Shown here piece after piece: positions 1-9,746 of a stretch of 62,650 nt of DNA. A program made the position numbers and the translations under genes. The notes beneath the pieces were generated by a model. The model ran no database searches, was not told the DNA's origin, and worked only from the letters and a program-made list of their open reading frames with translations. The DNA comes from a virus: IMG/VR virus record IMGVR_UViG_3300034418_004553; one strand, written 5' to 3'. Positions within the stretch are counted from its first letter, which is position 1. Every line of letters starts with the position of its first letter.

Positions 1-127
1 CTGGCTGTATCAGGTCTCTGCATATATCGTTAGCCATCATCTTGTCAACCATTACCTCAATACTGTCTACTTCGTGTTGTAGTAGACATAACTCACCACC
101 AGATATTTCTTTATACTTTTTAGTGTT
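1..127. repeat. Terminal direct repeat, exact copy of 62524..62650 (circular-closure overlap)
   Basis: Bases 1..127 (ctggctgtatcaggtctctg...ctttttagtgtt) read identically at 62524..62650. Confidence 0.95.
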
Positions 128-355
128 TCGAGTTGATGATTCGATAATCTTAAATGACTTTAACTTGTCAGGCTCTAATATAGCAGTGTGGAAGTAACCA
201 CCGACTAAGAAGTTAGGGTTGTTAGGTGTTTTGTCGTACAATGACATAGGATTCTTTAGTAACTTACTAATATGAGAGTTACTTAAGAACTGATTACCAA
301 ACTCACCGTAGTAGTCTTCATCATTACGTAGTCGATCGATTATTTCTTTACTCAT
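1..355 (-). CDS. PD-(D/E)XK (RecB/Cas4-like) exonuclease, N-terminal part. Same gene as 62144..62650 once the circle is closed (735 nt, 244 aa)
   Basis: Manual minus-strand translation from ATG 355..353: MSKEIIDRLRNDEDYYGEFGNQFLSNSHISKLLKNPMSLYDKTPNNPNFLVGGYFHTAILEPDKLKSFKIIESSTRNTKKYKEISGGELCLLQHEVDSIEVMVDKMMAND. It is open to base 1 and in frame with the 62144..62575 ORF. ATGA overlap with the erf stop. Confidence 0.7.
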   Translation of the reverse strand, partial: MSKEIIDRLRNDEDYYGEFGNQFLSNSHISKLLKNPMSLYDKTPNNPNFLVGGYFHTAILEPDKLKSFKIIESSTRNTKKYKEISGGELCLLQHEVDSIEVMVDKMMANDICRDLIQP

Positions 356-885
356 AGTTTACTTAGTTCTTCCTCTTGTTTTGAAGTAAGCTTGTACTTC
401 GTTTTAATTGCATTAACGTTTCCTCCATTAGTTATGTATTCTTTTGCTTTGTTAAACTGCTCGACAGTTATTCTAGGCTTTACGTCAGCTTTACCGTGCG
501 TGTTAGTTGCATCTGCGTCTTCAGTATCATCTATTAAGAATAGATTACCTAACGCGTACTTCTTACCGTAAGTACTTGCAGCACCAAACTGTTGAGACGT
601 CTGCATACCTTTTTGAGATAGGTCGACACCTACAACCGCAGTGGCTGTTACCTGGTTTTCACCGTCCGAGAAAATTGCTGTGGACTCGAGCATTGGCACA
701 GGCTCTGTGGCGATGATCTGTTCTTTAACTACTACAGAAACATCGAGCTCGAGGAGAAACGGTTTTACCGCTTCTAATATGTCTTCCGCTTTACGGAAAT
801 AATATTTGCCAAACGAATTATAGCTAGACTTTTTTGCCTTTAGCTTAGTTTGGACTTGAGCTAATTTGTTATTTAGTTCTTTCAT
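352..885 (-). CDS. erf: ERF-family single-strand annealing protein
   Basis: 177 aa. N-terminal coiled segment, then the GAASTYGKKYALGNLFLIDD block typical of the ERF/P22-Erf core. Adjacent to the exonuclease gene. Confidence 0.7.
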   Translation of the reverse strand: MKELNNKLAQVQTKLKAKKSSYNSFGKYYFRKAEDILEAVKPFLLELDVSVVVKEQIIATEPVPMLESTAIFSDGENQVTATAVVGVDLSQKGMQTSQQFGAASTYGKKYALGNLFLIDDTEDADATNTHGKADVKPRITVEQFNKAKEYITNGGNVNAIKTKYKLTSKQEEELSKL

Positions 886-945
886 TTTGGTATATGGTTT
901 ACATATATATAATTACAGGTTTTAACGTGGATTTACACGAGTAAA

Positions 946-1701
946 CTATAGAAAGTCAACCACTTGCGAGTAATCTACGTTTTCAACCAACTTGTCTATT
1001 GCCTGCTTTTTTAGCTGCGATATACGCACATAAGCACTGTCACCTTTTATGTTTAACTTCTCTGCTATTTGTTTAGCTGAAAGCTTATCACAGTTAAGGC
1101 CAAAGCTGTATTTAATAACATCTGCTTCACGGCTAGATAAATGCTGACTTAGCAAGTTAAGTAAGTACGAACACAAGAGCTCAGGGTTGTATCTTTTGAT
1201 CTTGTCTGGTACTTCAAAACCTATGTTAGCATCATCTAGCATTTTATCTAAGCTTACAAACACAGAGTTGAAAAACATTTCAAGTTGACTCTTATCTGCA
1301 TCGTTCTTACGTATCTCATTAAGCTTGTGCTCGGGTATACGCATCGTGCCTCGATTGATATCTACGGCTCTACGTATACCACCTTTGATACGTTTAGATA
1401 AAAATGACTTGAGCCTTTGCTCTGGATCACTAGCTTCGTATATAGTCTCCCAGTTAATTTTACCAACAGCGATAACTAAGTTCTTGTTACCTTCTTGTAT
1501 CAAGTCATTAATAGTCATTACGCCACTAGCCTGCTGCGTGGTAGAAAACTTACGCGCTAAGTTCTCTGCTAACGGCATGAACAGTAAGATCAGCTCATCG
1601 CGAGTCATTTCGTCCCAAGGCCTACAGAAGTCTGTTCGCCTTGTAAGCTGCTTTATATCTTCTTTGTATCGGATATAGTTTTGTATGTTATAACACTTCA
1701 T
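946..1701 (-). CDS. Sigma-70 family RNA polymerase sigma factor (regions 2-4)
   Basis: DLIQEGNKNLVIAVGKI...RIPEHKLNEI parallels sigma70 DLIQEGNIGLMKAVDKF...RIPVHM (regions 2.2-2.4/3.0). C-terminal LSSREADVIKYSFGL...SAKQIAEKLNI...YVRISQLKKQAIDKL matches region 4 HTH. Confidence 0.85.
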   Translation of the reverse strand: MKCYNIQNYIRYKEDIKQLTRRTDFCRPWDEMTRDELILLFMPLAENLARKFSTTQQASGVMTINDLIQEGNKNLVIAVGKINWETIYEASDPEQRLKSFLSKRIKGGIRRAVDINRGTMRIPEHKLNEIRKNDADKSQLEMFFNSVFVSLDKMLDDANIGFEVPDKIKRYNPELLCSYLLNLLSQHLSSREADVIKYSFGLNCDKLSAKQIAEKLNIKGDSAYVRISQLKKQAIDKLVENVDYSQVVDFL

Positions 1702-1773
1702 TGTCTTCTTTATTGTTTAGATGTGTTAACACGCAAGCTGTTGCACTTAGTGTTATAAAAATTATTAGTAAAT

Positions 1774-2397
1774 TCATAGTTGTTTATTTAAAAGTTCTTT
1801 TTCGCGCTTTAAGTCTTCACACATATGACGATGCACAGTACGAGATGATACACCCAGAACCTCAGAGACGCGTTTTATCGTGATCTTTTGGCCTAAGTCA
1901 TGTATATCTATCATAGCTTGATAAACGTCGTCAGGATGCGTCTTATTTGATCTGCCAATCAACTGACCTACGATACTGAGCTTTTCAGCTTTACTTAGCC
2001 CGCATCCACGTTTAAAAATAACTTTACGCAGTTTATTTTTAGGTGGTCTATCAAGATCAGACATGTATACATCATATACTATTTTGTCTATCATGTTATC
2101 ATTTATAGAGAAGCTAATAAAACCATTTGACTTGTTGCATATTGCATAAGACATTTGTTTAAACTCGTCAGGACCTTTTTCTGGGTTTAAGTACCACAGA
2201 ACAAGCAAGTGCCAATAAAGGCTCTTGTACGTGTTTATTTTAGCTTCGCTTCTAAACAGATCATAATACTCATGCGTACCGTCTTCAAAGAACATCCACT
2301 TATCTGTTTGTACAGTTGGAATGTCGTTAATAGGTAGTCTGGAGGTGATTACGTTATTGCGCCACAACATGTTATAATTACGATCAAACTGTGACAT
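1774..2397 (-). CDS. Hypothetical protein with C-terminal helix-turn-helix
   Basis: 207 aa. C-terminal ITIKRVSEVLGVSSRTVHRHM resembles an HTH. No other motif recognised. Confidence 0.55.
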   Translation of the reverse strand: MSQFDRNYNMLWRNNVITSRLPINDIPTVQTDKWMFFEDGTHEYYDLFRSEAKINTYKSLYWHLLVLWYLNPEKGPDEFKQMSYAICNKSNGFISFSINDNMIDKIVYDVYMSDLDRPPKNKLRKVIFKRGCGLSKAEKLSIVGQLIGRSNKTHPDDVYQAMIDIHDLGQKITIKRVSEVLGVSSRTVHRHMCEDLKREKELLNKQL

Positions 2398-2459
2398 AAG
2401 CCTGTTACTTAGTACTATTAGGGGCTATTGTCACACTGACCGGTTTAAGGGTCGCAAGA

Positions 2460-2478
2460 ATAATTCTTTTAGAATTAT
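2460..2478. promoter_or_regulatory. Perfect 8-bp inverted repeat ATAATTCT-TTT-AGAATTAT (hairpin or operator)
   Basis: Read directly in the 107-nt gap between two minus-strand genes. Confidence 0.3.
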
Positions 2479-2504
2479 CATAATTGGGTATTTTATTAAA
2501 TTCC

Positions 2505-3002
2505 TCAATACGTTTCTTTAGGTCTTTCTTCATATGTTTTTTCGGTTTTTAGGTTTGCGATTATTCTTTTTGCGCCTATGTAATAGTTCCAGTAAGCTTG
2601 CAGGCTACAATCGTCTTTATACTCATCTGGCATACACTGTGGAGGTTGTTCAAATGGCTCATGCGGTATATCAATAGGTGCTGCCCGTAAATGACCGCAC
2701 TTAGTTATAGACAAATGCGTTCTACCATATCTACGTTTGTATTCAGCACCTAATGCCATCATGTGCTCATACAGCCAATCATAATGTAAAGAGTTTTCTC
2801 TTACCCATATTGTTGAAGGGTGGTTGATATGCGCTTTTTTGTAAGGTACATTAACAAAGTCACCATCAACATCTCTATCACCTAGTATATGGTGGGCCGT
2901 GCAAAGCATCTGAGCAGACTCTAAGATCATCTTTACGACGTGCTTATTGTACTGATAATCAGCGGCTTTACGCGGATCTTTATGTAGATAAAATATATTC
3001 AT
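2505..3002 (-). CDS. Conserved-looking hypothetical protein (N-terminus MNIFYLHKDPRKAADYQYNKHVVKMILESAQML)
   Basis: 165-aa ORF abutting the next ORF start. The N-terminal motif looks like a recurrent phage family whose function I cannot name. Confidence 0.6.
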   Translation of the reverse strand: MNIFYLHKDPRKAADYQYNKHVVKMILESAQMLCTAHHILGDRDVDGDFVNVPYKKAHINHPSTIWVRENSLHYDWLYEHMMALGAEYKRRYGRTHLSITKCGHLRAAPIDIPHEPFEQPPQCMPDEYKDDCSLQAYWNYYIGAKRIIANLKTEKTYEERPKETY

Positions 3003-3184
3003 TAGTCTTCTATAGATGTTATACCATTACCTTTAGGACTGTTCATCAACTGCGAGTGCCTATATCTTTCATTACGAAGTTGCATCTCAAGCACTTTAAT
3101 TGTTTCGCTTTGTGTTTCAACTAATCGCTCGTATGCCTCTAATTTATTTTGTAACTCATCCATTGCTCTCTTCAAATTCTTCAA
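3002..3184 (-). CDS. Small coiled-coil protein
   Basis: 60 aa, heptad-like LQNKLEAYERLVETQSETIKVLEMQL. Packed tightly against its neighbours. Confidence 0.5.
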   Translation of the reverse strand: MKNLKRAMDELQNKLEAYERLVETQSETIKVLEMQLRNERYRHSQLMNSPKGNGITSIED

Positions 3185-3365
3185 TTACGTTTTCAATTTG
3201 TTGTGCACGGCTTGCTATTGACTCTGCAACGTCTGCAAAGCCACGTAATGCGCTGATCTCGTACTCTGATAATTCTTCTGCGTCTAAACCATCTTCAAGC
3301 GCGTATAGACAGTCGCGCATGTCCGCTAATGTATTTTCAAAGCGGCAGTAACTCATATTTCCCAT
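3156..3365 (-). CDS. Small acidic protein (YCRFENT motif)
   Basis: 69 aa, strongly acidic C-terminal half (IENVIEEFEESNG). Confidence 0.55.
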   Translation of the reverse strand: MGNMSYCRFENTLADMRDCLYALEDGLDAEELSEYEISALRGFADVAESIASRAQQIENVIEEFEESNG

Positions 3366-3366
3366 T

Positions 3367-3477
3367 TTAATATCTTTTTCTTTTGTTTCTAATTTGTTCT
3401 AATTTATCTAATAGCTTTATAGCTATGTCTACACTGATCTCGTCAGCGTAATATAGGTCGTATATTAATCTTCTCAT
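3367..3477 (-). CDS. Small hypothetical protein (36 aa, below the ORF-track cutoff)
   Basis: Manual translation MRRLIYDLYYADEISVDIAIKLLDKLEQIRNKRKRY. ATGA overlap with the ligase stop. Fills the gap exactly. Confidence 0.4.
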   Translation of the reverse strand: MRRLIYDLYYADEISVDIAIKLLDKLEQIRNKRKRY

Positions 3478-4319
3478 TCGTAGTCGCGTATACATTTAAA
3501 TAGTGGGTGACGGTAGCTACCAGCTTTGGTACGCTCGAAGTATGTGAACGTAGCTGTCTTGCCAACCCAGCCTTGCATAGCTTTAAAGTTGTCTTGTAAG
3601 TACTTGAACTTATCCATGACAGGCATACCAAACTCTACGCCATCAGCATCACGAGCTAGGAACTTACCGATCGTACCTACACGTTTGCCTTTACCTTCAA
3701 CCCAGCCAATAATTTCTGCCTCAGTGTCGTGGAAGTCTTTGAACTTACGTAGGCTGTGTGAACGCTTTTCGTGATACTCAGTATTAAGACGCAGTATTGA
3801 GCCTTCGTAACCTTGAGCAAGATTTCCATGGTGTATAATTTTAGCTTGATCTTCGTTAAACACATCTAACGTTGGTACACGTTTGATGCAGCGGTTTTGC
3901 ATAAGGTTGTATTGCAGCCACTCGCTACGCTTAGCAAACGGTAAGTGCATGCCTTTACCGATTAGATCGTAGCAGTGGAACTGCACAAGTCTAGCTGATT
4001 CAAGCCTGTACTCATCTGTTGGTTTAGTCTTACGCACGCAAGAGATGATCTTTTCGAAGTCATCTTTCAAGTCGTGGTTGTATAGCTCGCCATCGAGTAC
4101 AACTTGCGGGTTAAACTTGAAGAAAGGTTCAAGGTTAAACAAGATGTGATCGATGTTAAGCCATTGCTTACCTGTACGTGACCACGCGGTTACATTGCCG
4201 TTGTCACACTGTATGACACAGCGGACGCCGTCAAGCTTAGGCTGTAAGAATACGCCTTCGCTGTAGTCAATTGGTTTATCGCTGACAGGATATGCCAGCA
4301 TTGGTTTATGTCTTATCAT
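3474..4319 (-). CDS. lig: ATP-dependent DNA ligase
   Basis: Adenylation motif I KLDGVRC, motif IV-like EGSILR, motif V-like LRKFK. 281 aa, the size of minimal phage ligases. Confidence 0.85.
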   Translation of the reverse strand: MIRHKPMLAYPVSDKPIDYSEGVFLQPKLDGVRCVIQCDNGNVTAWSRTGKQWLNIDHILFNLEPFFKFNPQVVLDGELYNHDLKDDFEKIISCVRKTKPTDEYRLESARLVQFHCYDLIGKGMHLPFAKRSEWLQYNLMQNRCIKRVPTLDVFNEDQAKIIHHGNLAQGYEGSILRLNTEYHEKRSHSLRKFKDFHDTEAEIIGWVEGKGKRVGTIGKFLARDADGVEFGMPVMDKFKYLQDNFKAMQGWVGKTATFTYFERTKAGSYRHPLFKCIRDYE

Positions 4320-4357
4320 ATTATTATTATCTGTTAGTATTCGTATTTAGTTCGTAC
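4320..4357 (-). promoter_or_regulatory. Early-region repeat motif, copy a
   Basis: Minus strand GTACGAACTAAATACGAATACTAACAGATAATAATAAT immediately before the ligase ATG. The embedded TAA is the stop of ORF 4347..4766. Confidence 0.6.
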
Positions 4358-4766
4358 ATGTGTCTCGCTCTGTTTCGCTACAGTCGCAGTTGTCGCATAA
4401 AAACTCTTCAGTCTCGACCTGTTCAGGTGCGTACTTCTTCAGTAACATGTCTGGTGTACCTACAAATACACATCGCTCTTCTTCCCACGACGCTACTTTG
4501 AATACACTGATCCATGGCTCGGATTTGCCATGACACTGCCACACATAGTACATATACTCTATGTCGCAGTGTACTATATCAAGAGCTTCGACTTCCCAGC
4601 CTTCGACTTTACGATACTTAGTAAATGATTCGGCGATCTCTACGCCTAATCCTTCAGGATAACCATCCCAGTGATTATAGAACTGTGCGTGCCATCGATC
4701 TGGGTGTTTGTCAAAAGGTACACCCTCTTCGCGCGTTGCGAACCTTATTGTTGCTCTTGTTGCCAT
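4347..4766 (-). CDS. Hypothetical protein
   Basis: 139-aa ORF ending ...DTCTN-stop inside motif copy a. Confidence 0.6.
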   Translation of the reverse strand: MATRATIRFATREEGVPFDKHPDRWHAQFYNHWDGYPEGLGVEIAESFTKYRKVEGWEVEALDIVHCDIEYMYYVWQCHGKSEPWISVFKVASWEEERCVFVGTPDMLLKKYAPEQVETEEFLCDNCDCSETERDTCTN

Positions 4767-4845
4767 TATTCTTTAAATTTTCTATTTGATTCTATTATTT
4801 GTTCTAGTATTATGTAACCTAGTAAGCCCGCGTATAAGTATTCCA

Positions 4846-5127
4846 TTAGTCTAGTAGTATCATGTATGCGTTAGGATTCTTGATTAGAAACCAGTCCTTG
4901 CCTCTAGTAATGACATCAATGCAGTCATCTAGATCGAACACTGGTATGTTCATAACCATTGCTATTTCAGCACCTTTAATTAAATCATACATACTCAGCT
5001 CAGCAGCATCTAATAATGCTGTTTCACCAGTTAATGGGTTGCGCACTTCGTCACCTAGTTCGTATACGTCACCGTCGAACCAACTCGGTAACATTTCTTC
5101 TGCTTGTTGTTTGTTATTCATCTTCAA
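4846..5127 (-). CDS. Hypothetical protein
   Basis: 93-aa ORF, overlaps the next ORF by 14 nt. Confidence 0.55.
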   Translation of the reverse strand: MKMNNKQQAEEMLPSWFDGDVYELGDEVRNPLTGETALLDAAELSMYDLIKGAEIAMVMNIPVFDLDDCIDVITRGKDWFLIKNPNAYMILLD

Positions 5128-5350
5128 TAATATTTTCTCCTGTCATTAATGTGCTACCGTTGATACTACCAAAATCGACTCCGCCGTAGATTATAAGGTT
5201 ATTGATTTCGCTTATTTTAAGCTCGCTCCAGAATGATGTAGAATCGAGAACTTTAATAGTGCTAGTAACCGTAAATGTGTAATCATCTTGGTTTGCAAGC
5301 AAAGTATCACGTATGTCTTTGTTTAGTCTTTGGTATAATGTTCGTCTCAT
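5114..5350 (-). CDS. Hypothetical protein
   Basis: 78-aa ORF directly preceded by motif copy b. Confidence 0.55.
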   Translation of the reverse strand: MRRTLYQRLNKDIRDTLLANQDDYTFTVTSTIKVLDSTSFWSELKISEINNLIIYGGVDFGSINGSTLMTGENIIEDE

Positions 5351-5388
5351 ATTGATATTATCCGTTAGTATTCGTATTTAGTTTGTAA
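5351..5388 (-). promoter_or_regulatory. Early-region repeat motif, copy b
   Basis: Minus strand TTACAAACTAAATACGAATACTAACGGATAATATCAAT then ATG. Overlaps the 3' acceptor strand of minihelix 1. Confidence 0.6.
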
Positions 5389-5426
5389 GAGCGCAGGAAT
5401 CGAACCTGCACTAACCGTTACTCTTA
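5385..5426 (-). ncRNA. tRNA-like minihelix 1 (7-bp acceptor stem + 10-nt GG linker + T-arm; no D or anticodon arm)
   Basis: Minus strand TAAGAGT-AACGGTTAGT-GCAGG-TTCGATT-CCTGC-GCTCTTA-C. Canonical GGTTCGATTCC T-loop. The 5' acceptor strand lies only 10 nt upstream of the T-stem. Confidence 0.6.
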
Positions 5427-5698
5427 TATAAAGCGAAGACCGAGACATGTCATGTAACCTCGTCAGGTTACCTCGATCAACGCGTAGCGTGTATAGCAAC
5501 ACACCCGTTACATACATAAGCTGTTCACTTTGGGCTCGCTTCTGAACGAAGTTATATCGCCTCCCCAGCTCTATGTATGCCTTGCACCGTCGTGCTTATA
5601 TGTGCAATATGATGACTAATCTGCGAGCAATGTCTTAAGCTTCTCGCGGCGGACCATTACGGTGCTTCCACCAGTCTTGCACATTTAACTAGCTATTG
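5427..5698 (-). ncRNA. ORF-free, hairpin-dense segment upstream of minihelix 1 (candidate structured RNA)
   Basis: No ORF of 60 aa or more on either strand, and visibly more GC-rich than the flanks. Perfect hairpin GTAACCT-GACG-AGGTTAC (5454..5472), ~9-bp pairing of 5511..5520 with 5571..5580, and alternative TGTGCAA/TTGCACA/GTGCAA pairings. Confidence 0.4.
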
Positions 5699-6097
5699 TC
5701 AGACAAATTTGCCATCAATCTTACCTGAGTCGTCTTCGTTGACAAAATCTTCTTCAACTATGTTGAACATATCTTGTAACACGTTATAGATATCCGACTC
5801 AGATATTCCTATATTACTAAAATCAATATTCTCTATTACTACCGTATTACCGTAGTCCATACCAAATTCTACATCTAGATCGTGAGTGTCGACGTTGTGT
5901 ACTATTTCAGTGAATATATCTTGTAGTGCGTCTACTAAATCATCTGCCACTTTCGACTGGATTTTAGGTCTACCTGCATTAGCTAGTTCGTTTACTGCTG
6001 TGTTTAGCTCGCTTTGAGCTTGTCTTAATTCAGAGTCTTTAGTATCTCTGTTGGCTTGTAGTGCTTCCACTTTTGCCTGTAATTGTTCTTTATTCAT
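5699..6097 (-). CDS. Acidic coiled-coil protein
   Basis: 132 aa. Coiled N-terminal half, C-terminal half very D/E-rich (DTHDLDVEFGMDYG...EEDFVNEDDSG). Confidence 0.6.
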   Translation of the reverse strand: MNKEQLQAKVEALQANRDTKDSELRQAQSELNTAVNELANAGRPKIQSKVADDLVDALQDIFTEIVHNVDTHDLDVEFGMDYGNTVVIENIDFSNIGISESDIYNVLQDMFNIVEEDFVNEDDSGKIDGKFV

Positions 6098-6104
6098 GAT
6101 TATA

Positions 6105-6314
6105 TTATTTTAGCATTGTACCATAACCACGACGCCTAGTGAGCTTAGCGATACGATCGGCATCACTGCGTGACATGATTTGTATTGAGTTGCCTGTCTT
6201 GTGGTTGATAAGTGGTGCACAGCCATAACGCTCAACAGTAGAACAGTTGACACACACTTTGAAACCAAGGCGCAGACGGCCTTCAGGGATTATACTATTG
6301 CATTTGCATTTCAT
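6105..6314 (-). CDS. DksA/TraR-like C4 zinc-finger protein
   Basis: 69 aa. CKC-x(17)-CVNC arrangement with IPEGRLRLGFKVCVNC, similar to phage TraR-type zinc fingers. Confidence 0.5.
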   Translation of the reverse strand: MKCKCNSIIPEGRLRLGFKVCVNCSTVERYGCAPLINHKTGNSIQIMSRSDADRIAKLTRRRGYGTMLK

Positions 6315-6352
6315 ATATATATTATCGAAAAGTAATCGTATTTAGTTTGTAA
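6315..6352 (-). promoter_or_regulatory. Early-region repeat motif, copy c
   Basis: Minus strand TTACAAACTAAATACGATTACTTTTCGATAATATATAT then ATG. The embedded TAA is the stop of ORF 6342..6683 (…VHFTN-stop). Confidence 0.6.
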
Positions 6353-6683
6353 AATGTACATCGCGAGTACAGTCTTGAATATGCTCTACAACTTCATCTG
6401 CTTGATTAAAGTCAAGAGTGATATTACCACCTTCTTCAGTCACCGCATAAGTATTAAAGTACTCATTATCTGGGTCGAAGTAATCACAGTTAGGTATGTA
6501 GATTTGAAACTCAAACCGCTGAACTTCGTCGTCGTACCAAGTCGGTCTTTTGATTACACGTGTACAAGTTACTGATATAGAGGCAGTTGCATCATTGCCA
6601 TAGCTTGTATTTTCATATGAGTAACCTGCTTCGGTTAGCTTCATTGCTAGCGCATCATACGCTCTTTGTTCATAACTTGTCAT
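6342..6683 (-). CDS. Hypothetical protein (start trimmed to ATG 6683)
   Basis: The track ORF 6342..6761 has a hydrophobic N-terminal extension overlapping the upstream gene. Internal start MTSYEQRAY leaves only a 14-nt overlap. Confidence 0.55.
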   Translation of the reverse strand: MTSYEQRAYDALAMKLTEAGYSYENTSYGNDATASISVTCTRVIKRPTWYDDEVQRFEFQIYIPNCDYFDPDNEYFNTYAVTEEGGNITLDFNQADEVVEHIQDCTRDVHFTN

Positions 6684-6921
6684 AGTAGTTTTCTTGAAAT
6701 AAGTTAATAATATGCCTACCAGATCGAGTATGGAAACCATAGCTATGAGTAAACATGCCACTGATTGGCTTGTTTTCGAGTACTAATTGTAGTACTTCCC
6801 ATGGTGTACACTCGATCTCATAAGCGGTTGCTTTTGCTGCGTCTGTTAATGTTGCACAGCAGTGTCTTGGTTGAGAGTCTAACTCTTCAACGATATAGTT
6901 TTCCACTTCTTGTTCTGTCAT
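6670..6921 (-). CDS. Hypothetical protein
   Basis: 83-aa ORF in the tightly packed series. Confidence 0.55.
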   Translation of the reverse strand: MTEQEVENYIVEELDSQPRHCCATLTDAAKATAYEIECTPWEVLQLVLENKPISGMFTHSYGFHTRSGRHIINLFQENYYDKL

Positions 6922-6925
6922 AGTA

Positions 6926-7126
6926 TTAAATTAAAATTAAGTCATCAATATAGTCAGGTTCTAGGCCGAACTCACAGGATACGTAGTCTTCTACATCCCA
7001 TACTGTTAGCTCGCCTGACGCTAGACCTTGCATTACATAGTCTCTTGCTTCAGATACTATGTGCTCTGCTGTTTCAGGTGATATACTATCGCGCTTGATT
7101 AGCACGTCTTTGATTCTATATTTCAT
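6926..7126 (-). CDS. Small acidic protein
   Basis: 66 aa, D/E-rich. Confidence 0.55.
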   Translation of the reverse strand: MKYRIKDVLIKRDSISPETAEHIVSEARDYVMQGLASGELTVWDVEDYVSCEFGLEPDYIDDLILI

Positions 7127-7256
7127 TTGCTACATAATTTTCTGCTTCTTCAAGCGTTGTACATTGAGGTACACTGTCATAAGTGCCGTCAGTATACCAT
7201 ATTTTGTTAAGTTCTGGAGCGTAACCGTGTCGCTCTAATCCTACTATTTTTTTCAT
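7116..7256 (-). CDS. Small hypothetical protein (46 aa, below the track cutoff)
   Basis: Manual translation MKKIVGLERHGYAPELNKIWYTDGTYDSVPQCTTLEEAENYVANEI. ATGA overlap with the upstream stop. Confidence 0.4.
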   Translation of the reverse strand: MKKIVGLERHGYAPELNKIWYTDGTYDSVPQCTTLEEAENYVANEI

Positions 7257-7471
7257 TCTTCTAATTCTATTTGTAGTGTTTCACATAACCACTCGTCTTC
7301 GAACCATAGAATATCATTAAGTTGAGTTTCTGTTAATCCATCAGGATACAAATCTTCTATTAGATATTCAAAGTGCTCAGACTTGTTGTTTTCTATAATC
7401 AGTCGCTTTGTTTCTTTTGCACCTGCCCAAGCCTCAAAGCGATTTAGTTTTAAGTGTTGTATTACTTTCAT
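7253..7471 (-). CDS. Small acidic protein
   Basis: 72 aa ending ...WFEDEWLCETLQIELEE. Confidence 0.55.
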   Translation of the reverse strand: MKVIQHLKLNRFEAWAGAKETKRLIIENNKSEHFEYLIEDLYPDGLTETQLNDILWFEDEWLCETLQIELEE

Positions 7472-7483
7472 TTTACTGCTTGA

Positions 7484-7633
7484 TTATTCATGACACATCC
7501 ACTCTATTGAGCCAAGGCTGTAGCCTTTGCCGATTAAGAAGCCTTCAAGCGCTTCGTGAACTTCTGGCATTTCTGGTGGTAGCACATACGTGTCTACCTC
7601 TGCTCTTTCAAAATTTAATACTGTTATTTTCAT
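7484..7633 (-). CDS. Small hypothetical protein (49 aa)
   Basis: Manual translation MKITVLNFERAEVDTYVLPPEMPEVHEALEGFLIGKGYSLGSIEWMCHE. TAATG junction with the upstream ORF. Confidence 0.4.
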   Translation of the reverse strand: MKITVLNFERAEVDTYVLPPEMPEVHEALEGFLIGKGYSLGSIEWMCHE

Positions 7634-7806
7634 TATTTCTCTAATATATAGGTGAAACCTTTATAACCGAACCAGTGGGAAACACCATCTGACTCACCAT
7701 AGTTAATACAACCGAAATTATTCGGTAAATCTCCAATACAGTATGGCTTATAAACTGCCATTCCTATCTGTATTTTATTATTTTTTAAGAATTTAATTGT
7801 TTTCAT
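7633..7806 (-). CDS. Small hypothetical protein (57 aa)
   Basis: Manual translation MKTIKFLKNNKIQIGMAVYKPYCIGDLPNNFGCINYGESDGVSHWFGYKGFTYILEK. Preceded directly by motif copy d. Confidence 0.45.
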   Translation of the reverse strand: MKTIKFLKNNKIQIGMAVYKPYCIGDLPNNFGCINYGESDGVSHWFGYKGFTYILEK

Positions 7807-7844
7807 ATTATTATTATCTATTGTGTTCCGTATTTAGTTTGTTA
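7807..7844 (-). promoter_or_regulatory. Early-region repeat motif, copy d
   Basis: Minus strand TAACAAACTAAATACGGAACACAATAGATAATAATAAT then ATG. The embedded TAA stops ORF 7834..7962 (…DLTN-stop). Confidence 0.6.
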
Positions 7845-7962
7845 AATCTGACGCTACATTAACAAGTAGCATTATCATAGCGATACCAAATGTACCAATG
7901 TTCAAAGCAAGTACTGCTTTCATAGTAATCTCTGCGATTACAAAGTGATTGAATTTTCTCAT
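7834..7962 (-). CDS. Small membrane protein (42 aa, one TM)
   Basis: Manual translation MRKFNHFVIAEITMKAVLALNIGTFGIAMIMLLVNVASDLTN. Confidence 0.4.
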   Translation of the reverse strand: MRKFNHFVIAEITMKAVLALNIGTFGIAMIMLLVNVASDLTN

Positions 7963-7968
7963 ATTATA

Positions 7969-8283
7969 TTATTTTAGTAGTTTCATAAGTGCATTGACAA
8001 CGTCATTAGCGTTTGAAGTGTAATCAACGCCTAAGGATAGTGCATTGCTGTAACAGTCATCGCACTCGTCTTGCCACTCGACAAACTGCCAATAGCCAAA
8101 CATAGTTGATTCAAGTGCTGTGCTACGCACTGAGTAGTCACTGATGTTGTAAGTGATACTGATTTCACTGTCACCAATCAGAGTTAAATCATGATTTGGT
8201 AAGTGATGCTTGAGTAATTGATGTATAGCGTTACGCTGTAGTTTTACTTGAGCTCGTAGCTCTTTATTGAATATCATTGCCAT
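7969..8283 (-). CDS. Hypothetical protein
   Basis: 104-aa ORF directly preceded by motif copy e. Confidence 0.55.
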   Translation of the reverse strand: MAMIFNKELRAQVKLQRNAIHQLLKHHLPNHDLTLIGDSEISITYNISDYSVRSTALESTMFGYWQFVEWQDECDDCYSNALSLGVDYTSNANDVVNALMKLLK

Positions 8284-8321
8284 ATTATTATTATCTATAA
8301 GTTATCGTATTTTGTTTGTAG
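8284..8321 (-). promoter_or_regulatory. Early-region repeat motif, copy e (TAA mutated to AAA)
   Basis: Minus strand CTACAAACAAAATACGATAACTTATAGATAATAATAAT then ATG. The upstream ORF reads through the motif (…TTNKIR-stop). Confidence 0.55.
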
Positions 8322-8436
8322 TATTAGGTCTCACCATTGCCACCTCTTCAAACTCTTCACGAGTGATAAGATTCATCATTAGTGCTAAGTAGTACTTAGT
8401 TACATCTCGCTTAGTTATTTTGTTAATTACTTTCAT
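8302..8436 (-). CDS. Small hypothetical protein (44 aa)
   Basis: Manual translation MKVINKITKRDVTKYYLALMMNLITREEFEEVAMVRPNTTNKIR. Confidence 0.4.
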   Translation of the reverse strand: MKVINKITKRDVTKYYLALMMNLITREEFEEVAMVRPNTTNKIR

Positions 8437-8451
8437 ATTATTTTTAGTTTA

Positions 8452-8495
8452 GTAGTAGCTTGCGAATCGAACGCAACTCGGCACCATGACTACTA
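8452..8495 (-). ncRNA. tRNA-like minihelix 2 (same architecture as 5385..5426)
   Basis: Minus strand TAGTAGT-CATGGTGCCGAG-TTGCG-TTCGATT-CGCAA-GCTACTA-C. Both stems differ in sequence from copy 1 but stay complementary. Same T-loop, U7-G66 wobble, discriminator C and trailing AAACTAAA. Confidence 0.6.
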
Positions 8496-8560
8496 TGTAA
8501 GTGTTCATATTTGATATACCAGTAAACACTAAACTAACTGGACTATATGTTGAAGAGTAG

Positions 8561-8815
8561 TTATGACACTACTGCGTCAGTTTCACGCAACACTTTTGGT
8601 ATATTGTTACTAGCAGTGTACGACTTATACTTTGCCCAACATGGCATTGCTTCTAAAGCTGACTGCATAAGAGTGAATGCTTTGTCGTGATTGTAAGTAA
8701 CTGTGTTACCATTCTTGAATGTTACTGTTATTGTAGCGCCTTTGCCTACAAGTGATTGACGTAAAACGAAACGCTTGCTAGTTAGAGTGTTAGTCACTGC
8801 ATTTGAATTTGACAT
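8561..8815 (-). CDS. Hypothetical protein
   Basis: 84-aa ORF. Confidence 0.55.
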   Translation of the reverse strand: MSNSNAVTNTLTSKRFVLRQSLVGKGATITVTFKNGNTVTYNHDKAFTLMQSALEAMPCWAKYKSYTASNNIPKVLRETDAVVS

Positions 8816-8842
8816 GTTATATATATTTTTAAGTTATTAGTT

Positions 8843-8880
8843 ATATTTATTATCTGTTGCTTGTCGTATTTAGTTTGTAA
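8843..8880 (-). promoter_or_regulatory. Early-region repeat motif, copy f
   Basis: Minus strand TTACAAACTAAATACGACAAGCAACAGATAATAAATAT. Here the ATG (8815) lies a further ~27 nt downstream. Confidence 0.5.
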
Positions 8881-8958
8881 AAGTAGTAAGTTTGTTTATG
8901 TATTAGTTTTAGTAGAGTAGTACTCCGCCGCGCTCGCAAGTGAACGACATAAATTATT

Positions 8959-9066
8959 TTACAACAACTCACTGAGTGAACAAGTTAGCATTATGTAAAG
9001 AGTAAATACTGTAGCGAAAAGAATTGTATAAATTATTTCTTGAAGTAGTAATTTTAGAATACGCAT
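8959..9066 (-). CDS. Small hydrophobic protein (35 aa), first ORF of the leftward arm
   Basis: Manual translation MRILKLLLQEIIYTILFATVFTLYIMLTCSLSELL. Confidence 0.35.
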   Translation of the reverse strand: MRILKLLLQEIIYTILFATVFTLYIMLTCSLSELL

Positions 9067-9089
9067 GTAGAATATTTTTGTTTTGTTAT

Positions 9090-9127
9090 ATATATATTAT
9101 CGAAGCGTTGTCGTACTTACTATGCAA
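9090..9127 (-). promoter_or_regulatory. Early-region repeat motif, copy g (degenerate, outermost)
   Basis: Minus strand TTGCATAGTAAGTACGACAACGCTTCGATAATATATAT. It keeps the TACGA and CGATAAT blocks and sits at the head of the leftward arm. Confidence 0.4.
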
Positions 9128-9189
9128 AAATCGAAACTGAGGCAAAGCCAAAGGCGGGGCCCGGTAAACTATATGCACTTTTCCTGGCA

Positions 9190-9213
9190 GGGGGAGGGGC
9201 CGGGGGAGGGGGG
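9190..9213 (+). other. Canonical G-quadruplex motif G5-A-G4-CC-G5-A-G6
   Basis: Read directly: gggggaggggccgggggagggggg. Four G-tracts of 4 or more with loops of 1, 2 and 1 nt, inside a GC-rich island (about 9140..9230) of an AT-rich genome. Confidence 0.8.
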
Positions 9214-9353
9214 CTACATTTCCCTCCAATATTTATAATATCCGAAAAAAGTATGACACTAGGTAGTTAATAGATATTAGTAACAGGCATATGTCACACT
9301 TTTTAAATAGCGAAGTAAGTGTGTAACTATAAAGAGTATAAAGAAGAAAAGCA

Positions 9354-9746
9354 ATGGCAACTACAACAGCACAAGTAATTATATCAAGCACGAACTTACT
9401 TTCTAGTTCACTTAGCATTAATAACACACGTACATTAAAGCAGTCTGACGGAACAGATGTGGATGAGTCTACAGGTCTAGCAGCAACTAAGAACGGTGGT
9501 ACTAGTATATATACTTTGTATTTAGCGTCAGCTTACGGTAACAACGGTGCCGCGAAAGTGTACATTAAGAATAACGATACTACGTTTGCTAACTTTGTTA
9601 CGATCACGATAGGCTCACAAACTCTTGGTAGATTATACGGCGGTGATTGGGCGCTTATACCTTGGGATGCTACAAACGATTTCAAAGCTACAAACAACAA
9701 CAGCGGTACTACTATTGAGCACATGCTGTTACATGAAGGAGCATAA
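9354..9746 (+). CDS. Hypothetical protein, first ORF of the late arm
   Basis: 130-aa ORF, T/S/N/G-rich. Confidence 0.6.
   Translation: MATTTAQVIISSTNLLSSSLSINNTRTLKQSDGTDVDESTGLAATKNGGTSIYTLYLASAYGNNGAAKVYIKNNDTTFANFVTITIGSQTLGRLYGGDWALIPWDATNDFKATNNNSGTTIEHMLLHEGA

Follow-up and report, generated by a model that had tools for sequence, protein, structure and literature searches.

The evidence strongly supports the view that a marine, Flavobacteria-type dsDNA podophage carries a tRNA-derived acceptor/T-arm mimic that is under selection and is not a decoding tRNA. The window, meaning the whole stretch analysed, is the 62,650-nt IMG/VR virus record IMGVR_UViG_3300034418_004553, and it holds two copies. 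The element retains the top half of a tRNA, with the acceptor stem, the T arm and, left over from the D loop, two Gs able to close the elbow. The data show that its fold is selected, that it keeps to one strand and position, and that it is modular. By analogy with organellar t-elements and mascRNA, we propose with a probability of about one half that it is the phage counterpart of these, a processing signal for host tRNA-trimming enzymes. We infer both the individual enzymatic steps and processing as the selected function.

If this holds, Bacteroidota dsDNA phages would punctuate early transcripts with stripped-down tRNA mimics, which until now has been documented for organelles and a handful of eukaryotic long non-coding RNAs. 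The family provides a natural, evolutionarily maintained acceptor/T-arm minihelix, previously known only as a laboratory substrate and a hypothetical tRNA ancestor. A graded series from tRNA through degenerate tRNA-like element to minihelix, found at two separate loci, indicates which features are kept once decoding is lost. At least two unclassified structured phage RNAs and a tRNA-like class with alanine identity also came to light; neither tRNA finders nor Rfam detect them, which leaves them invisible in current phage annotation. A full-text literature search found no description of a phage element of this kind.

Fold and class of the minihelix

Copy 1 was read on the minus strand (Table 1). 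Its acceptor stem has the seven base pairs claimed in an earlier note on this DNA, closed by U7:G66, and the 10-nt GG-bearing linker, perfect T arm and discriminator described there are all present; CCA is not encoded. Just 10 nt separate the acceptor and T stems, as expected from the claim that D arm and anticodon arm are lacking. The second copy, said to have the same architecture with compensated stems, does so: 8495..8452 reads TAGTAGT-CATGGTGCCGAG-TTGCG-TTCGATT-CGCAA-GCTACTA-C.

Table 1. Features of the two minihelix loci in the window.
Feature	Position	Strand	Basis or remark
Copy 1, tRNA top-half mimic	5385..5426	minus	sequence read, structural scan, covariance model, orthologues
Copy 1 acceptor 5' strand, TAAGAGT	5426..5420	minus	
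Copy 1 linker, AACGGTTAGT, 10 nt	5419..5410	minus	GG at 5416..5415
Copy 1 T stem, GCAGG + CCTGC	5409..5405 + 5397..5393	minus	
Copy 1 T loop, TTCGATT	5404..5398	minus	
Copy 1 acceptor 3' strand, GCTCTTA	5392..5386	minus	
Copy 1 discriminator, C	5385	minus	
Promoter-like gene-start motif ACAAACTAAATACGAATACTAACGGATAATA	5356..5386	minus	abuts and overlaps the mimic 3' end
Structured non-coding RNA	5427..5684	minus	directly 5' of copy 1; alignments, RNAalifold, helix variants
Spacer UUUAUA	5432..5427	minus	
Long helix GCG-UU-GAUCGAG / CUCGGUC-UU-CGC	5483..5472 with 5444..5433	minus	
Enclosed hairpin GUAACC-UGACGA-GGUUAC	5471..5454	minus	
Hairpin at variable site 2	5505..5488	minus	
Helix closing variable site 1	about 5580..5567 with 5524..5511	minus	
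Conserved hairpin GCAC-GACG-GTGC	5595..5584	minus	alignment
89-nt insertion, long hairpin closed by AUGUGCAA/UUGCACAU	5596..5684	minus	alignment and fold
Start motif TGACAATAGCTAGTTAA, stops in all three frames	5685..5701	minus	identical in all orthologues
Copy 2	8452..8495	minus	structural scan; covariance model R1, 74.5 bits
Promoter-like motif AAATATGAACACTTACA	8496..8512	minus	ends exactly at copy 2 nucleotide 1

Covariance model R1 scores copy 1 at 55.6 bits (E 1e-11). In a structural scan of the window, copies 1 and 2 are the only sites that combine a complete T stem (5/5), a TTCRANN loop and a complete acceptor stem (7/7); 300 dinucleotide shuffles gave 0.087 such sites per window and none with the TTCGATT loop. 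The acceptor stem of copy 1 is A/U-rich, and in RNAfold the minimum-energy fold lengthens the T stem and does not favour the acceptor stem (z = -1.9). Support for the fold of copy 1 is comparative. A 50-codon ORF (5365..5517) overlaps copy 1 but is not conserved, as the inserts found at this place in orthologues have lengths (61, 70 and 83 nt) not divisible by three. The ACAAACTAAATACGAATACTAACGGATAATA motif precedes the ATG at 5350 of a 78-codon ORF.

The earlier statement that this is not a decoding tRNA agrees with ARAGORN, which called 0 tRNA or tmRNA genes, and with Rfam, which gave nothing at the gathering threshold and nothing at E <= 10 over copy 1 or copy 2; the Rfam tRNA model scores a genuine tRNA of a relative at 65.7 bits. 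These null results exclude an ordinary or intron-containing tRNA. The canonical tRNA stack is present, with a 7-bp acceptor on a 5-bp T stem and G53-UUCRANN-C61. A tmRNA was rejected because the 10-nt linker leaves no room for a tag frame and pseudoknots, ARAGORN and Rfam were null, and G3:U70 is absent (A3:U70 in copy 1, G3:C70 in copy 2). A permuted or two-piece tmRNA would likewise need G3:U70, and both acceptor strands here flank the T arm. YrlA and other bacterial Y RNAs were set aside on a null result with the Rfam YrlA model and the finding of a TROVE domain in no ORF of at least 490 codons. An aminoacylatable viral tRNA-like structure does not fit an element that is internal in a DNA phage and whose acceptor sequence is not conserved. 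A hammerhead-like reading of CUGACGAG fails, as the GAAA/stem III arrangement is absent and the Rfam ribozyme models are null.

A family of elements in related phages

Copy 1 is not isolated; this phage group has a great many tRNA-derived elements, of which it is one. Searching GenBank (blastn of the region against 50,697 phages) gave no homologue, and an IMG/VR search with the two small flanking proteins gave nothing. Relatives in IMG/VR were recovered by anchoring on GroEL and DNA ligase; an exact 16-mer of the non-coding RNA matched only three already known IMG/VR contigs apart from chance matches. About 120 distinct elements derived from tRNAs occur in the related marine podophage contigs, each in the early arm and in sense orientation. 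Structural matches number 148 on the sense strand and 0 on the antisense strand. A pairing-independent census of about 2.2 Mb counted 147 sense-strand occurrences of GTTCGANTC and none antisense; a perfect T stem surrounds 137 of these sites, and an acceptor complement is present in 105 of the 137, against 19 expected. A covariance-model search run without filters found the minihelix absent from phi14:2 (first 12 kb), from part of MW202828.1 and from Flavobacterium phage elemoF, the nearest cultured relative examined.

The earlier note had named conservation and covariation of the two stems as a check on its fold, and both are found. Among 19 distinct short-linker members, picked by a scan that itself required pairing, 11 of the 12 pairs show compensatory changes on both sides, 95.6% of cells are paired (66.8% in shuffles) and covariation scores 0.79, where shuffles reach 0.19 and slid controls at most 0.16. 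The family consensus is an acceptor stem of 6-7 bp followed by A-C; the outermost pair, 1:72, is present in 9 of the 19 members and in copies 1 and 2. Eight of the 19 have U7:G66, and because such pairs exist only on the sense strand, structure at the RNA level is favoured. The T loop U54 U55 C56 G57 A58 N59 U60 is invariant together with G53:C61, with position 59 varying as it does in tRNAs. The linker GG, 3 nt past the acceptor strand, is nearly invariant and behaves like G18-G19 of the D loop. Acceptor-stem sequence varies freely between phages, which makes a partner that reads sequence, as a synthetase does, less likely.

In the metagenome orthologues of copy 1 (n=32) both stems are kept in all, and the linker site holds either the same 10-nt linker or unrelated arms of 61, 70, 81 or 83 nt. 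Copy 1 is the minimal form of an element that bears a 61-83-nt arm in many relatives. Orthologues of copy 2 occur in L005, L007, L008, L012 and L076, and L004 has a version with a 42-nt linker. A Flavobacteriales-type tRNA-Gly(UCC) contains, as its D loop, variable loop and T arm, the same sequence as the linker and T arm of the commonest family members. The decoding half is dispensable, judging from the variable arms at the copy 1 locus, the long linker in L004 and this tRNA-Gly identity. Relatives also hold a separate class of tRNA-like elements with alanine identity (G3:U70 and A73), with which copy 1 has its T arm (GCAGG/CCTGC) and linker (AAnGGTTAG) in common.

Genuine tRNAs lie in the same arm of relatives, and they and the mimics have a common CCA-less trailer, N73-C74-[A/U]AA. 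The layout in relatives runs from a three-frame stop through a helix-closed structured leader and a UUUAYA/UUUUAU spacer to either a genuine tRNA or a tRNA-like element. This arrangement suggests that mimic and real tRNA are interchangeable. Each genome has one to three copies of the element, which share their strand with all flanking ORFs and are followed by a start codon 14-36 nt downstream, behind an A-rich leader. The genes downstream belong to at least 5 unrelated families, so that a gene-specific regulator, such as a riboswitch or leader, is excluded.

The structured RNA upstream of copy 1

The stretch 5427..5698 had been described as the sole long non-coding part of the early arm, and 5351..5698 is the longest inter-ORF gap there, at 348 nt against 124 nt for the next. 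Its GC-richness is also borne out: 5385..5698 has 47.1% G+C against 39.1% in the window, which places it in the top 0.3% of 314-nt windows. The hairpin reported at 5454..5472 was found as GTAACC/GGTTAC (5471..5454), and the pairing of about 9 bp between 5511..5520 and 5571..5580 is there as CATACATA/TATGTATG. The proposed mutually exclusive pairings of TGTGCAA, TTGCACA and GTGCAA did not survive. In the orthologue alignment TGTGCAA/TTGCACA closes the window-specific 89-nt insertion (5684..5596), missing in 12 of 12 other aligned orthologues, and GTGCAA belongs to the separate conserved GCAC-GACG-GTGC hairpin, which excludes a three-way switch.

The ORF-free stretch is a real structured RNA: its core is conserved, its helices covary and it has variable hairpins at four sites. 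Fold stability reaches z = -2.56 for the whole stretch and -3.17 for its 3' part; Rfam has no matching family. At its 5' side, the TGACAATAGCTAGTTAA motif contains the TGA stop of the ORF 5699..6097. The ORF upstream of the motif stops at this TGA here and in L180, and at a second TAG in 17 other contexts.

A candidate processing signal and its rivals

The reading of the element as a processing signal follows from what it has kept: only features read by tRNA end-processing enzymes, with the decoding parts lost. Bacterial RNase P, RNase Z and CCA-adding enzymes act on minihelices made of acceptor stem and T arm. The shared ORF strand, the lack of any intrinsic terminator predicted on the minus strand of 4200..9600 and the gene starts of L174, L181 and L187, where the promoter-like motif is missing between a copy-1-type mimic and the gene, point to polycistronic embedding. 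We propose that the element is transcribed within a sense-strand early polycistronic RNA. Host RNase P would cut at the 5' edge of the mimic, about 5427|5426, giving the structured non-coding RNA, bounded by the 5701..5685 motif and the mimic, its 3' end. RNase Z, or an equivalent 3' activity, would cut past the discriminator/C74 at about 5385/5384 and free the downstream message with a short A-rich leader. The minihelix of roughly 42 nt would be released and probably CCA-tailed; the freed RNA of 42-45 nt would end ...GCUCUUAC(C)CA, with the CCA untemplated. In 20 further ORFs Pfam detected no gene for tRNA processing, CCA addition, RNA ligation or Ro60, so any processing would be left to host enzymes. 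Several observations stand against this scheme, among them the A/U-rich acceptor stem of copy 1, with the longer T stem preferred by RNAfold, and the lack of the element in elemoF. The 6-bp stem in half of the family gives an 11-bp stack, suboptimal for RNase P/Z measuring, and nucleotide -1 is A or C and not the U preferred by RNase P, unless the 6-bp register is used. A processing signal alone also leaves unexplained the need for anything beyond a simple hairpin and the purpose of the upstream non-coding RNA.

Several known systems resemble the phage element in part. In MALAT1 (mascRNA) and MEN-beta an RNase P cut makes the 3' end of the upstream RNA and the small RNA is CCA-tailed. The element likewise lies directly 3' of a structured non-coding RNA, in all orthologues. 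MascRNA is a full cloverleaf with an anticodon-like arm, and its upstream RNA is protected by a triple helix, whereas the phage RNA is about 200-310 nt and part of a transcript shared with protein-coding genes; the Rfam mascRNA-menRNA cloverleaf model has no match. Synthetic acceptor-TΨC minihelices are model substrates for RNase P, CCA-adding enzyme, EF-Tu and some synthetases. They have the same coaxial 7+5-bp stack, T loop and discriminator, but their stems are contiguous; in the phage element a linker bearing GG stands at the junction and CCA is not encoded. The large structured RNAs of GOLLD/ROOL type that are associated with phages are 580-800 nt and often lie beside tRNAs. These are also structured phage non-coding RNAs adjoining tRNA or tRNA-like genes, but the phage RNA, at about 200-310 nt, is smaller and has no Rfam sequence or structure match. 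The tRNA-like domain of tmRNA shares the acceptor and T arm, a GG-containing D-loop analogue and the lack of an anticodon arm; copies 1 and 2 are without G3:U70, tag reading frame and pseudoknots, and the large RNA lies outside the phage domain, not inside it.

A further parallel is with the t-elements of plant mitochondria (Hanic-Joyce et al. 1990; Forner et al. 2007, PMC1920247), non-decoding tRNA-like folds with a GGTTCRANYCC motif that mark mRNA 5' and 3' ends through RNase P/Z. The phage element shares this fold and T-loop motif and, as in t-elements and mitochondrial tRNA punctuation, is embedded in sense orientation near gene ends. Real tRNAs can replace t-elements as RNase P/RNase Z signals, to which the swap of position in relatives is the phage likeness. 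The phage element differs in coming from a bacterial dsDNA phage and not an organelle, in being pared down even more, to nothing but an acceptor/T-arm helix and its 9-13-nt GG linker, and in forming a covarying family across many genomes; cleavage here is predicted. The bacterial world also has tRNA mimics in the YrlA Y RNAs, which have a T arm and D-loop features and occur in 22 phages (Chen et al. 2014, PMC4201824). One member, from M. smegmatis, has a 7-bp acceptor stem and is cut by RNase P and CCA-tailed (PMC4201824). YrlA has a D arm, a Ro60-binding stem and an adjoining Ro60/TROVE gene; the phage element has none of these and no Rfam match.

The two copies sit in different contexts: copy 1 ends the non-coding RNA, and the class of copy 2 begins 7-11 nt past a promoter-like motif. 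Copy 2 is followed by TAAACTAAAAATAATATG and then a 44-codon ORF (8302..8436). A broader reading, of low probability, is that free natural "top-half tRNAs" of 42-45 nt may be excised, CCA-tailed and act in trans as sequence-independent decoys or competitors of host enzymes or defence toxins that read the elbow and acceptor end, with the promoter-proximal class possibly a tRNA-like 5' cap and the linked 200-310-nt RNA a new functional phage non-coding RNA whose maturation is coupled to theirs.

That the released minihelix is itself the product, a CCA-tailed top half acting in trans as decoy, competitor or substrate, is in its simple form unlikely. Possible targets are host factors or toxins that read the acceptor end or elbow, e.g. 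nucleotidyltransferase toxins, acceptor-stem nucleases and RNase P. Conservation of the T loop and GG is much tighter than cleavage signalling might demand, expression from the early arm is usual for anti-defence genes, each genome has its one to three copies, and the Ala-identity elements of relatives look built for charging. The unconserved acceptor stems, however, would require a sequence-independent target, and neither a dedicated promoter and terminator pair around the element nor an adjoining defence or tRNA-modifying gene was found.

We also doubt that the element is a cis-acting 5' module kept on the mRNA, guarding it against 5'-end-dependent decay or aiding ribosome loading in a host that makes no use of Shine-Dalgarno pairing. 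Such a role would suit the half of the minihelices, copy 2 included, that begin at the predicted +1 of the promoter-like motif, 7-11 nt past AAATAYGAA, where GATAATA opens in ordinary gene starts, and also the nearby start codon behind its A-rich leader. The motif stands 7-11 nt upstream of 11 of 22 minihelices, against 0 of 28, 1 of 25 and 3 of 44 in other element classes. This promoter-proximal class may act differently, as a 5' cut is unnecessary where the element starts at the predicted +1. Copy 1 and its 32 orthologues, by contrast, close the non-coding RNA and precede the motif; protection would take no more than a plain hairpin, yet neither the T loop nor the GG varies; and the motif is a putative promoter for which no matching phage RNA polymerase was detected.

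Less probable again is that non-coding RNA and mimic form one RNA, in which the mimic is a permanent 3' domain, CCA-tailed and either nuclease-resistant or a protein handle, and not a cleavage site, on the model of bacterial Y RNAs and plant-virus tRNA-like structures. The two occur together in all orthologues with enough upstream sequence, the UUUAYA spacer between closing helix and mimic is fixed, and the minimum-energy fold allows pairing between UAGCUAGUUA in the 5' segment and UAACGGUUA in the linker. Against this, an accessible 6-7-bp acceptor stem and T arm behind a long 5' leader would be expected to be an RNase P substrate, real tRNAs that need release hold the same position behind a similar leader in relatives, and no Ro60/TROVE gene or Y-RNA, tmRNA or other Rfam match was found.

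The clear derivation of the elements from tRNA genes, with real tRNAs in the same arm of relatives, might suggest a functionless decaying pseudogene or an element acting at the DNA level (hairpin promoter, replication origin, attP core), but this is very improbable: the compensated pairs and invariant T loop across diverged phages and the 148 to 0 strand bias mean that the element is neither chance nor decay, its G:U pairs would be C·A mismatches on the opposite strand, an attP core needs no compensated 5' strand and would not occur in many different contexts, and N4-type promoter hairpins have 3-nt loops, whereas the element has a 7-nt loop, two stacked helices and G:U on one strand, and no N4-like polymerase was detected by Pfam or PDB sequence search.

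As for the motif itself, neither Pfam nor a PDB sequence search detected an RNA polymerase of single-subunit or N4-like type in the 3081-codon ORF, and sigma-70-type consensus sites show no enrichment. The gene-start motif repeats at 4348, 5379, 6343, 8312 and 8871, with a variant form at 8512, and its AAATACGAA-N8-G form, which resembles TAATACGACTCACTATA|G, may be a T7-like promoter.

Two tRNA top halves in the early arm

Its large terminase, portal, GroEL, ribonucleotide reductase and primase-helicase assign the window to the podophages of Flavobacteriia. Terminase identity is 64.6% with MW202828.1 and about 45% with Flavobacterium phage elemo and Cellulophaga phages. Minus-strand genes at 1..9000 form the early/replication arm (among them those for an Erf recombinase, a DNA ligase and a sigma-70 region-4 protein, besides numerous small ORFs), and no tRNA-processing enzyme gene was found among the window ORFs scanned. 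Elsewhere, a 737-codon protein has a C-terminal T9SS sorting domain, which fits a host in Bacteroidota. A 3081-codon ORF of the virion module, without sequence match in Pfam, PHROG or PDB, contains VFDGDVD (a DxDxD motif, residues ~1144-1151), which brings to mind the catalytic motif that crAss-like virion RNA polymerases carry.

Copy 1 of the minihelix contains every part read in the earlier note: seven acceptor pairs (the final one U:G), a 10-nt linker (AACGGTTAGT) whose GG occupies 5416..5415, a T stem of five perfect pairs, a TTCGATT loop that fits the universal T loop, and a discriminator; CCA is not encoded. The second copy, claimed with different stems, is also present. A scan of both strands of the entire window for this architecture returned these two sites only, against a chance expectation of 0.087 per window (dinucleotide shuffles), or 0 with the TTCGATT loop. 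Nearest-neighbour folding of copy 1 favoured an extended T stem at the expense of the A/U-rich acceptor stem (z = -1.9). Since folding alone is unconvincing, support for the copy-1 fold comes from sequence comparison.

The view that this is not a decoding tRNA is borne out at both copies. ARAGORN called no tRNA or tmRNA in the window, and Rfam gave no match there at the gathering threshold and none at E<=10 around either copy, whilst its tRNA model scored 65.7 bits on a genuine tRNA from a related contig (positive control). The copies were rejected as tRNA or tmRNA, and the element likewise as mascRNA (by its model), YrlA, an aminoacylatable viral tRNA-like structure and an N4 hairpin promoter. 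Full-text literature searches turned up no account of an acceptor/T-arm minihelix from a phage genome, in agreement with the earlier claim of novelty; by that search the minihelix is undescribed in phages.

Positions of features in the window and in related phages
Feature	Source	Position	Strand	Sequence or remark
Copy 1	window	5426..5385	minus	TAAGAGT-AACGGTTAGT-GCAGG-TTCGATT-CCTGC-GCTCTTA-C
Copy 2	window	8495..8452	minus	same design as copy 1, stem sequences differ
Three-frame stop motif	window	5701..5685	minus	TGACAATAGCTAGTTAA; also L101 8082, L022, L004, L011
Gene-start motif	window	4348..4340, 5379..5371	minus	AAATACGAA
Gene-start motif	window	6343..6335, 8312..8304	minus	AAATACGAT
Gene-start motif	window	8871..8863	minus	AAATACGAC
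Gene-start motif	window	8512..8504	minus	AAATATGAA
Sigma-70 region-4 protein	window	946..1701	minus	early arm
GroEL chaperonin	window	10924..12495	plus	
3081-codon ORF	window	37535..46780	plus	virion module
737-codon protein	window	48465..50678	plus	T9SS sorting domain
Second leader, unclassified	L101	8082-8322		closed by ACGAGGTG(A)GGG / CCC(A)CCTCGT, TTTAT spacer
Second-leader flanks	L027			tRNA-Arg
Second-leader flanks	L091, L039, L070, L028, L097			class-4 elements
Ala-like class, examples	L106; L138; L129; L124	4417-4493; 8165-8242; 7408-7496; 7409-7482		
AAGCTAG/CAACTAG class, examples	L028; L119; L105	2101-1996; 7104-7202; ~7780-7860		
Tandem tRNA-like elements	L001 (MW202828.1)	522-700	plus	
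Predicted tmRNA	phi14:2 (L200, NC_021806)	4031-4500		tag GSSVQKLAMVA*
Perfect T arm	phi14:2	~1826-1842		in the 1619-1984 gap

A family of minihelices and its likely origin

The minihelix belongs to a family under selection. We collected 152 related IMG/VR loci, with GroEL and ligase as anchors, in which a covariance model derived from six elements with short linkers (the class of copies 1 and 2) gave ~50 matches, nearly all on the early-gene strand. A structural census yielded 148 elements (119 distinct), all on the sense strand, and a pairing-free census of GTTCGANTC gave 147 sense and 0 antisense occurrences. Of the sense occurrences 137 have a perfect T stem, and for 105 of these an acceptor complement lies within 6-75 nt (19 expected). 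The antisense form of this T-loop word, which has eight specified bases, is absent from 154 related loci (~2.2 Mb), where we estimate ~10-25 from base composition; avoidance of TCGA or CG may be the cause.

The earlier note had staked its reading on covariation of the two stems, and they covary. Among 19 distinct short-linker members, a set whose selecting scan itself demanded pairing, paired cells make up 95.6% (66.8% shuffled), 11 of 12 pairs show both-sided changes, and the covariation score is 0.79 against 0.19 for shuffled and <=0.16 for slid partners. The outermost acceptor pair is kept in 9 of the 19; thus the 7-bp acceptor stem holds for copies 1 and 2 but not as a family rule, the family stem being 6-7 bp long with a conserved A-C after it. 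Apart from position 59, which also varies in tRNAs, the T loop does not change, and almost all members have the linker GG 3 nt past the acceptor strand.

The commonest linker and T arm, AATGGTTTAT-GTGAG-TTCGATT-CTCAC, match parts of a tRNA-Gly(UCC), namely its D loop (AATGGTT), its variable loop (TTTAT) and its T arm; this tRNA lies on a contig binned with a Flavobacteriales MAG. Because of this match the minihelix resembles a tRNA gene from which an internal stretch, D loop to variable loop, has been deleted, and the linker GG, earlier called D-loop-like, is plausibly G18-G19. Orthologues at both window loci form a reduction series. The copy-2 orthologue of the closest relative has a 42-nt, tRNA-sized linker and is no longer called as tRNA by ARAGORN; some copy-1 orthologues carry unrelated 58-83-nt arms at the linker position, and ~17 others have the bare 10-nt linker. 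Across orthologues the top half alone stays constant.

The upstream RNA and a layout shared with real tRNAs

The ORF-free, GC-rich, hairpin-dense segment described 5' of copy 1 stands up to comparison. The gap at 5351..5698 is the longest in the early arm (47.1% G+C versus 39.1% overall), and 13 distinct orthologues align as a conserved core with four sites of hairpin inserts that vary in length and sequence. An 89-nt hairpin insertion (5684..5596) is private to the window. Compensatory changes occur in the helix closing variable site 1 (GCGUAC/GUACGU versus GUGUAG/CUACAU), an internal hairpin (CGGG..CCG versus CAGG..CCUG), a hairpin with a YGACGR loop (GUAAUU/AAUUAC, UCUCU/AGAGA, GGUAACC/GGUUAC) and a long helix (GCG-UU-GAUCGAG/CUCGAUC-UU-CGC), in which two U:A pairs replace the UU·UU loop in L175 and L083 (GCAUUGACC/GGUCAAUGC). 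Six nucleotides, UUUAYA, separate the long helix from the mimic. On these alignments the segment is a structured RNA, and an unclassified one, with no Rfam family found in the window and four orthologues. The one loosely related report found, on Cellulophaga phage phi14:2, describes early long non-coding RNAs that are abundant and have no assigned function (bioRxiv 10.1101/2020.03.07.982082); one is transcribed from the long early intergenic region in which ARAGORN predicts a tmRNA, and a further perfect T arm lies in another gap of that genome.

The ncRNA always starts with TGACAATAGCTAGTTAA, a motif with a stop codon in each of the three frames. Its TGA ends the upstream ORF in the window, and the second TAG does so in 17 other contexts, so the motif is conserved whichever frame is used; it has the look of a barrier that stops translation ahead of a non-translated RNA on a shared transcript. 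At least two different structured non-coding RNAs follow it, and in L004 (plus strand, 7925) and L011 it occurs without a nearby T loop.

The same motif precedes a second structured leader of ~220 nt. This leader differs from the window ncRNA and is closed by ACGAGGUG..GGG/CCC..CACCUCGU and followed by a UUUAU spacer. Immediately 3' of it come real tRNAs or tRNA-like elements (Rfam detects tRNA only): in L101 tRNA-Asp follows, and its 3' flank recurs ahead of tRNA-Arg and other tRNA-like classes. The common stop-leader-spacer layout implies that the tRNA-like part is interchangeable with a real tRNA. The same arm of relatives carries, on the same strand, genuine tRNAs (Met, Arg, Asp, Ala, Gly, Thr, Gln); none encodes CCA, and they share with the mimics the trailer N73-C74-[A/U]AA. 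Flavobacterium phage elemoF, a cultured relative, has an early-arm tRNA-Met and no minihelix in NC_055853.1 8000-33000 (covariance search, filters off); no cultured model system carrying one was identified.

Candidate function and neighbouring elements

The features kept (a 6-7-bp acceptor stem stacked on the T arm, an intact T loop, a GG able to close the elbow and a discriminator) are the ones that RNase P, RNase Z and the CCA-adding enzyme recognise, all of which tolerate acceptor/T-arm minihelices; those lost, the D stem and anticodon arm, are required for decoding only. The minihelix is sense-strand, intergenic, swappable with real tRNAs and independent of the neighbouring gene. A 7-bp acceptor stem is important for RNase P (PMC4201824). 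We propose, with a probability of about one half, that the minihelix is a processing signal, all of whose enzymatic steps we infer: cleavage at the minihelix would form the end of the upstream ncRNA, and processing there would free the downstream message. In position and structure the phage element corresponds to a t-element-type signal; its proposed function would resemble that of plant-mitochondrial t-elements (PMC1920247) and of mascRNA. Terminator prediction for 4200..9600 gave no intrinsic terminator on the minus strand.

Genes downstream of copy-1 orthologues belong to at least five unrelated families, which excludes a gene-specific leader. A decoy acting in trans is unlikely, and equally so a retained 5' stabiliser or translation module; a permanent 3' domain within one larger RNA seems less probable still. 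A pseudogene or DNA-level element is very improbable. G:U pairs (U7:G66 in 8 of the 19 short-linker members) occur on the sense strand only and favour structure in RNA over a DNA cruciform.

A ~32-nt gene-start motif, tACAAACTAAATACGAAtACTAACaGATAATA(N5)ATG, occurs six times in 4.3..8.9 kb of the early arm, overlapping the final codons of upstream genes in two different frames. It also has a promoter-like placement in the divergent region ahead of the first early gene. We take it to resemble a compact phage-type promoter (compare T7 TAATACGACTCACTATA followed by G); it is unlike the Bacteroidota TTTG/TAnnTTTG type, and no RNA polymerase matching it was found. One of these motifs stands a little downstream of copy 1. 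L174, L181 and L187 lack it, and the gene comes directly after the mimic, so there the gene must be co-transcribed. Half of the short-linker class, copy 2 included, starts 7-11 nt past the motif, the distance at which GATAATA begins in ordinary gene starts; other element classes almost never do. This promoter-proximal class may work by means other than processing.

Relatives carry further tRNA-like classes. In an Ala-like class, called neither tRNA nor tmRNA by ARAGORN, acceptor stems (GGGCGTG/GGGGGTG/GGGAGTG) always have G3:U70 and A73, the identity set for alanine; the 5' part is similar to a tmRNA 5' end (GGGGGUGACCUGGUUUUGACG), and a variable 20-65-nt insert occupies the anticodon-arm position; these could be chargeable mini-tmRNA-like RNAs. 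The AAGCTAG/CAACTAG class runs GTATGGT, a long insert with AAACGTTTTCACGAGC, a hairpin TAC-TGACGA-GTA, then TGAGG-TTCGATT-CCTCA-CTAGCTA, often with the Ala-like class directly next and then tRNA-Met; its UGACGA-loop hairpin is also found in the window ncRNA (5471..5454). MW202828.1 has two tandem tRNA-like elements not called by ARAGORN, one with a D arm and a long aberrant arm, the other with acceptor, D arm and T arm and an 11-nt stretch for the anticodon arm, followed by a hairpin resembling an intrinsic terminator.
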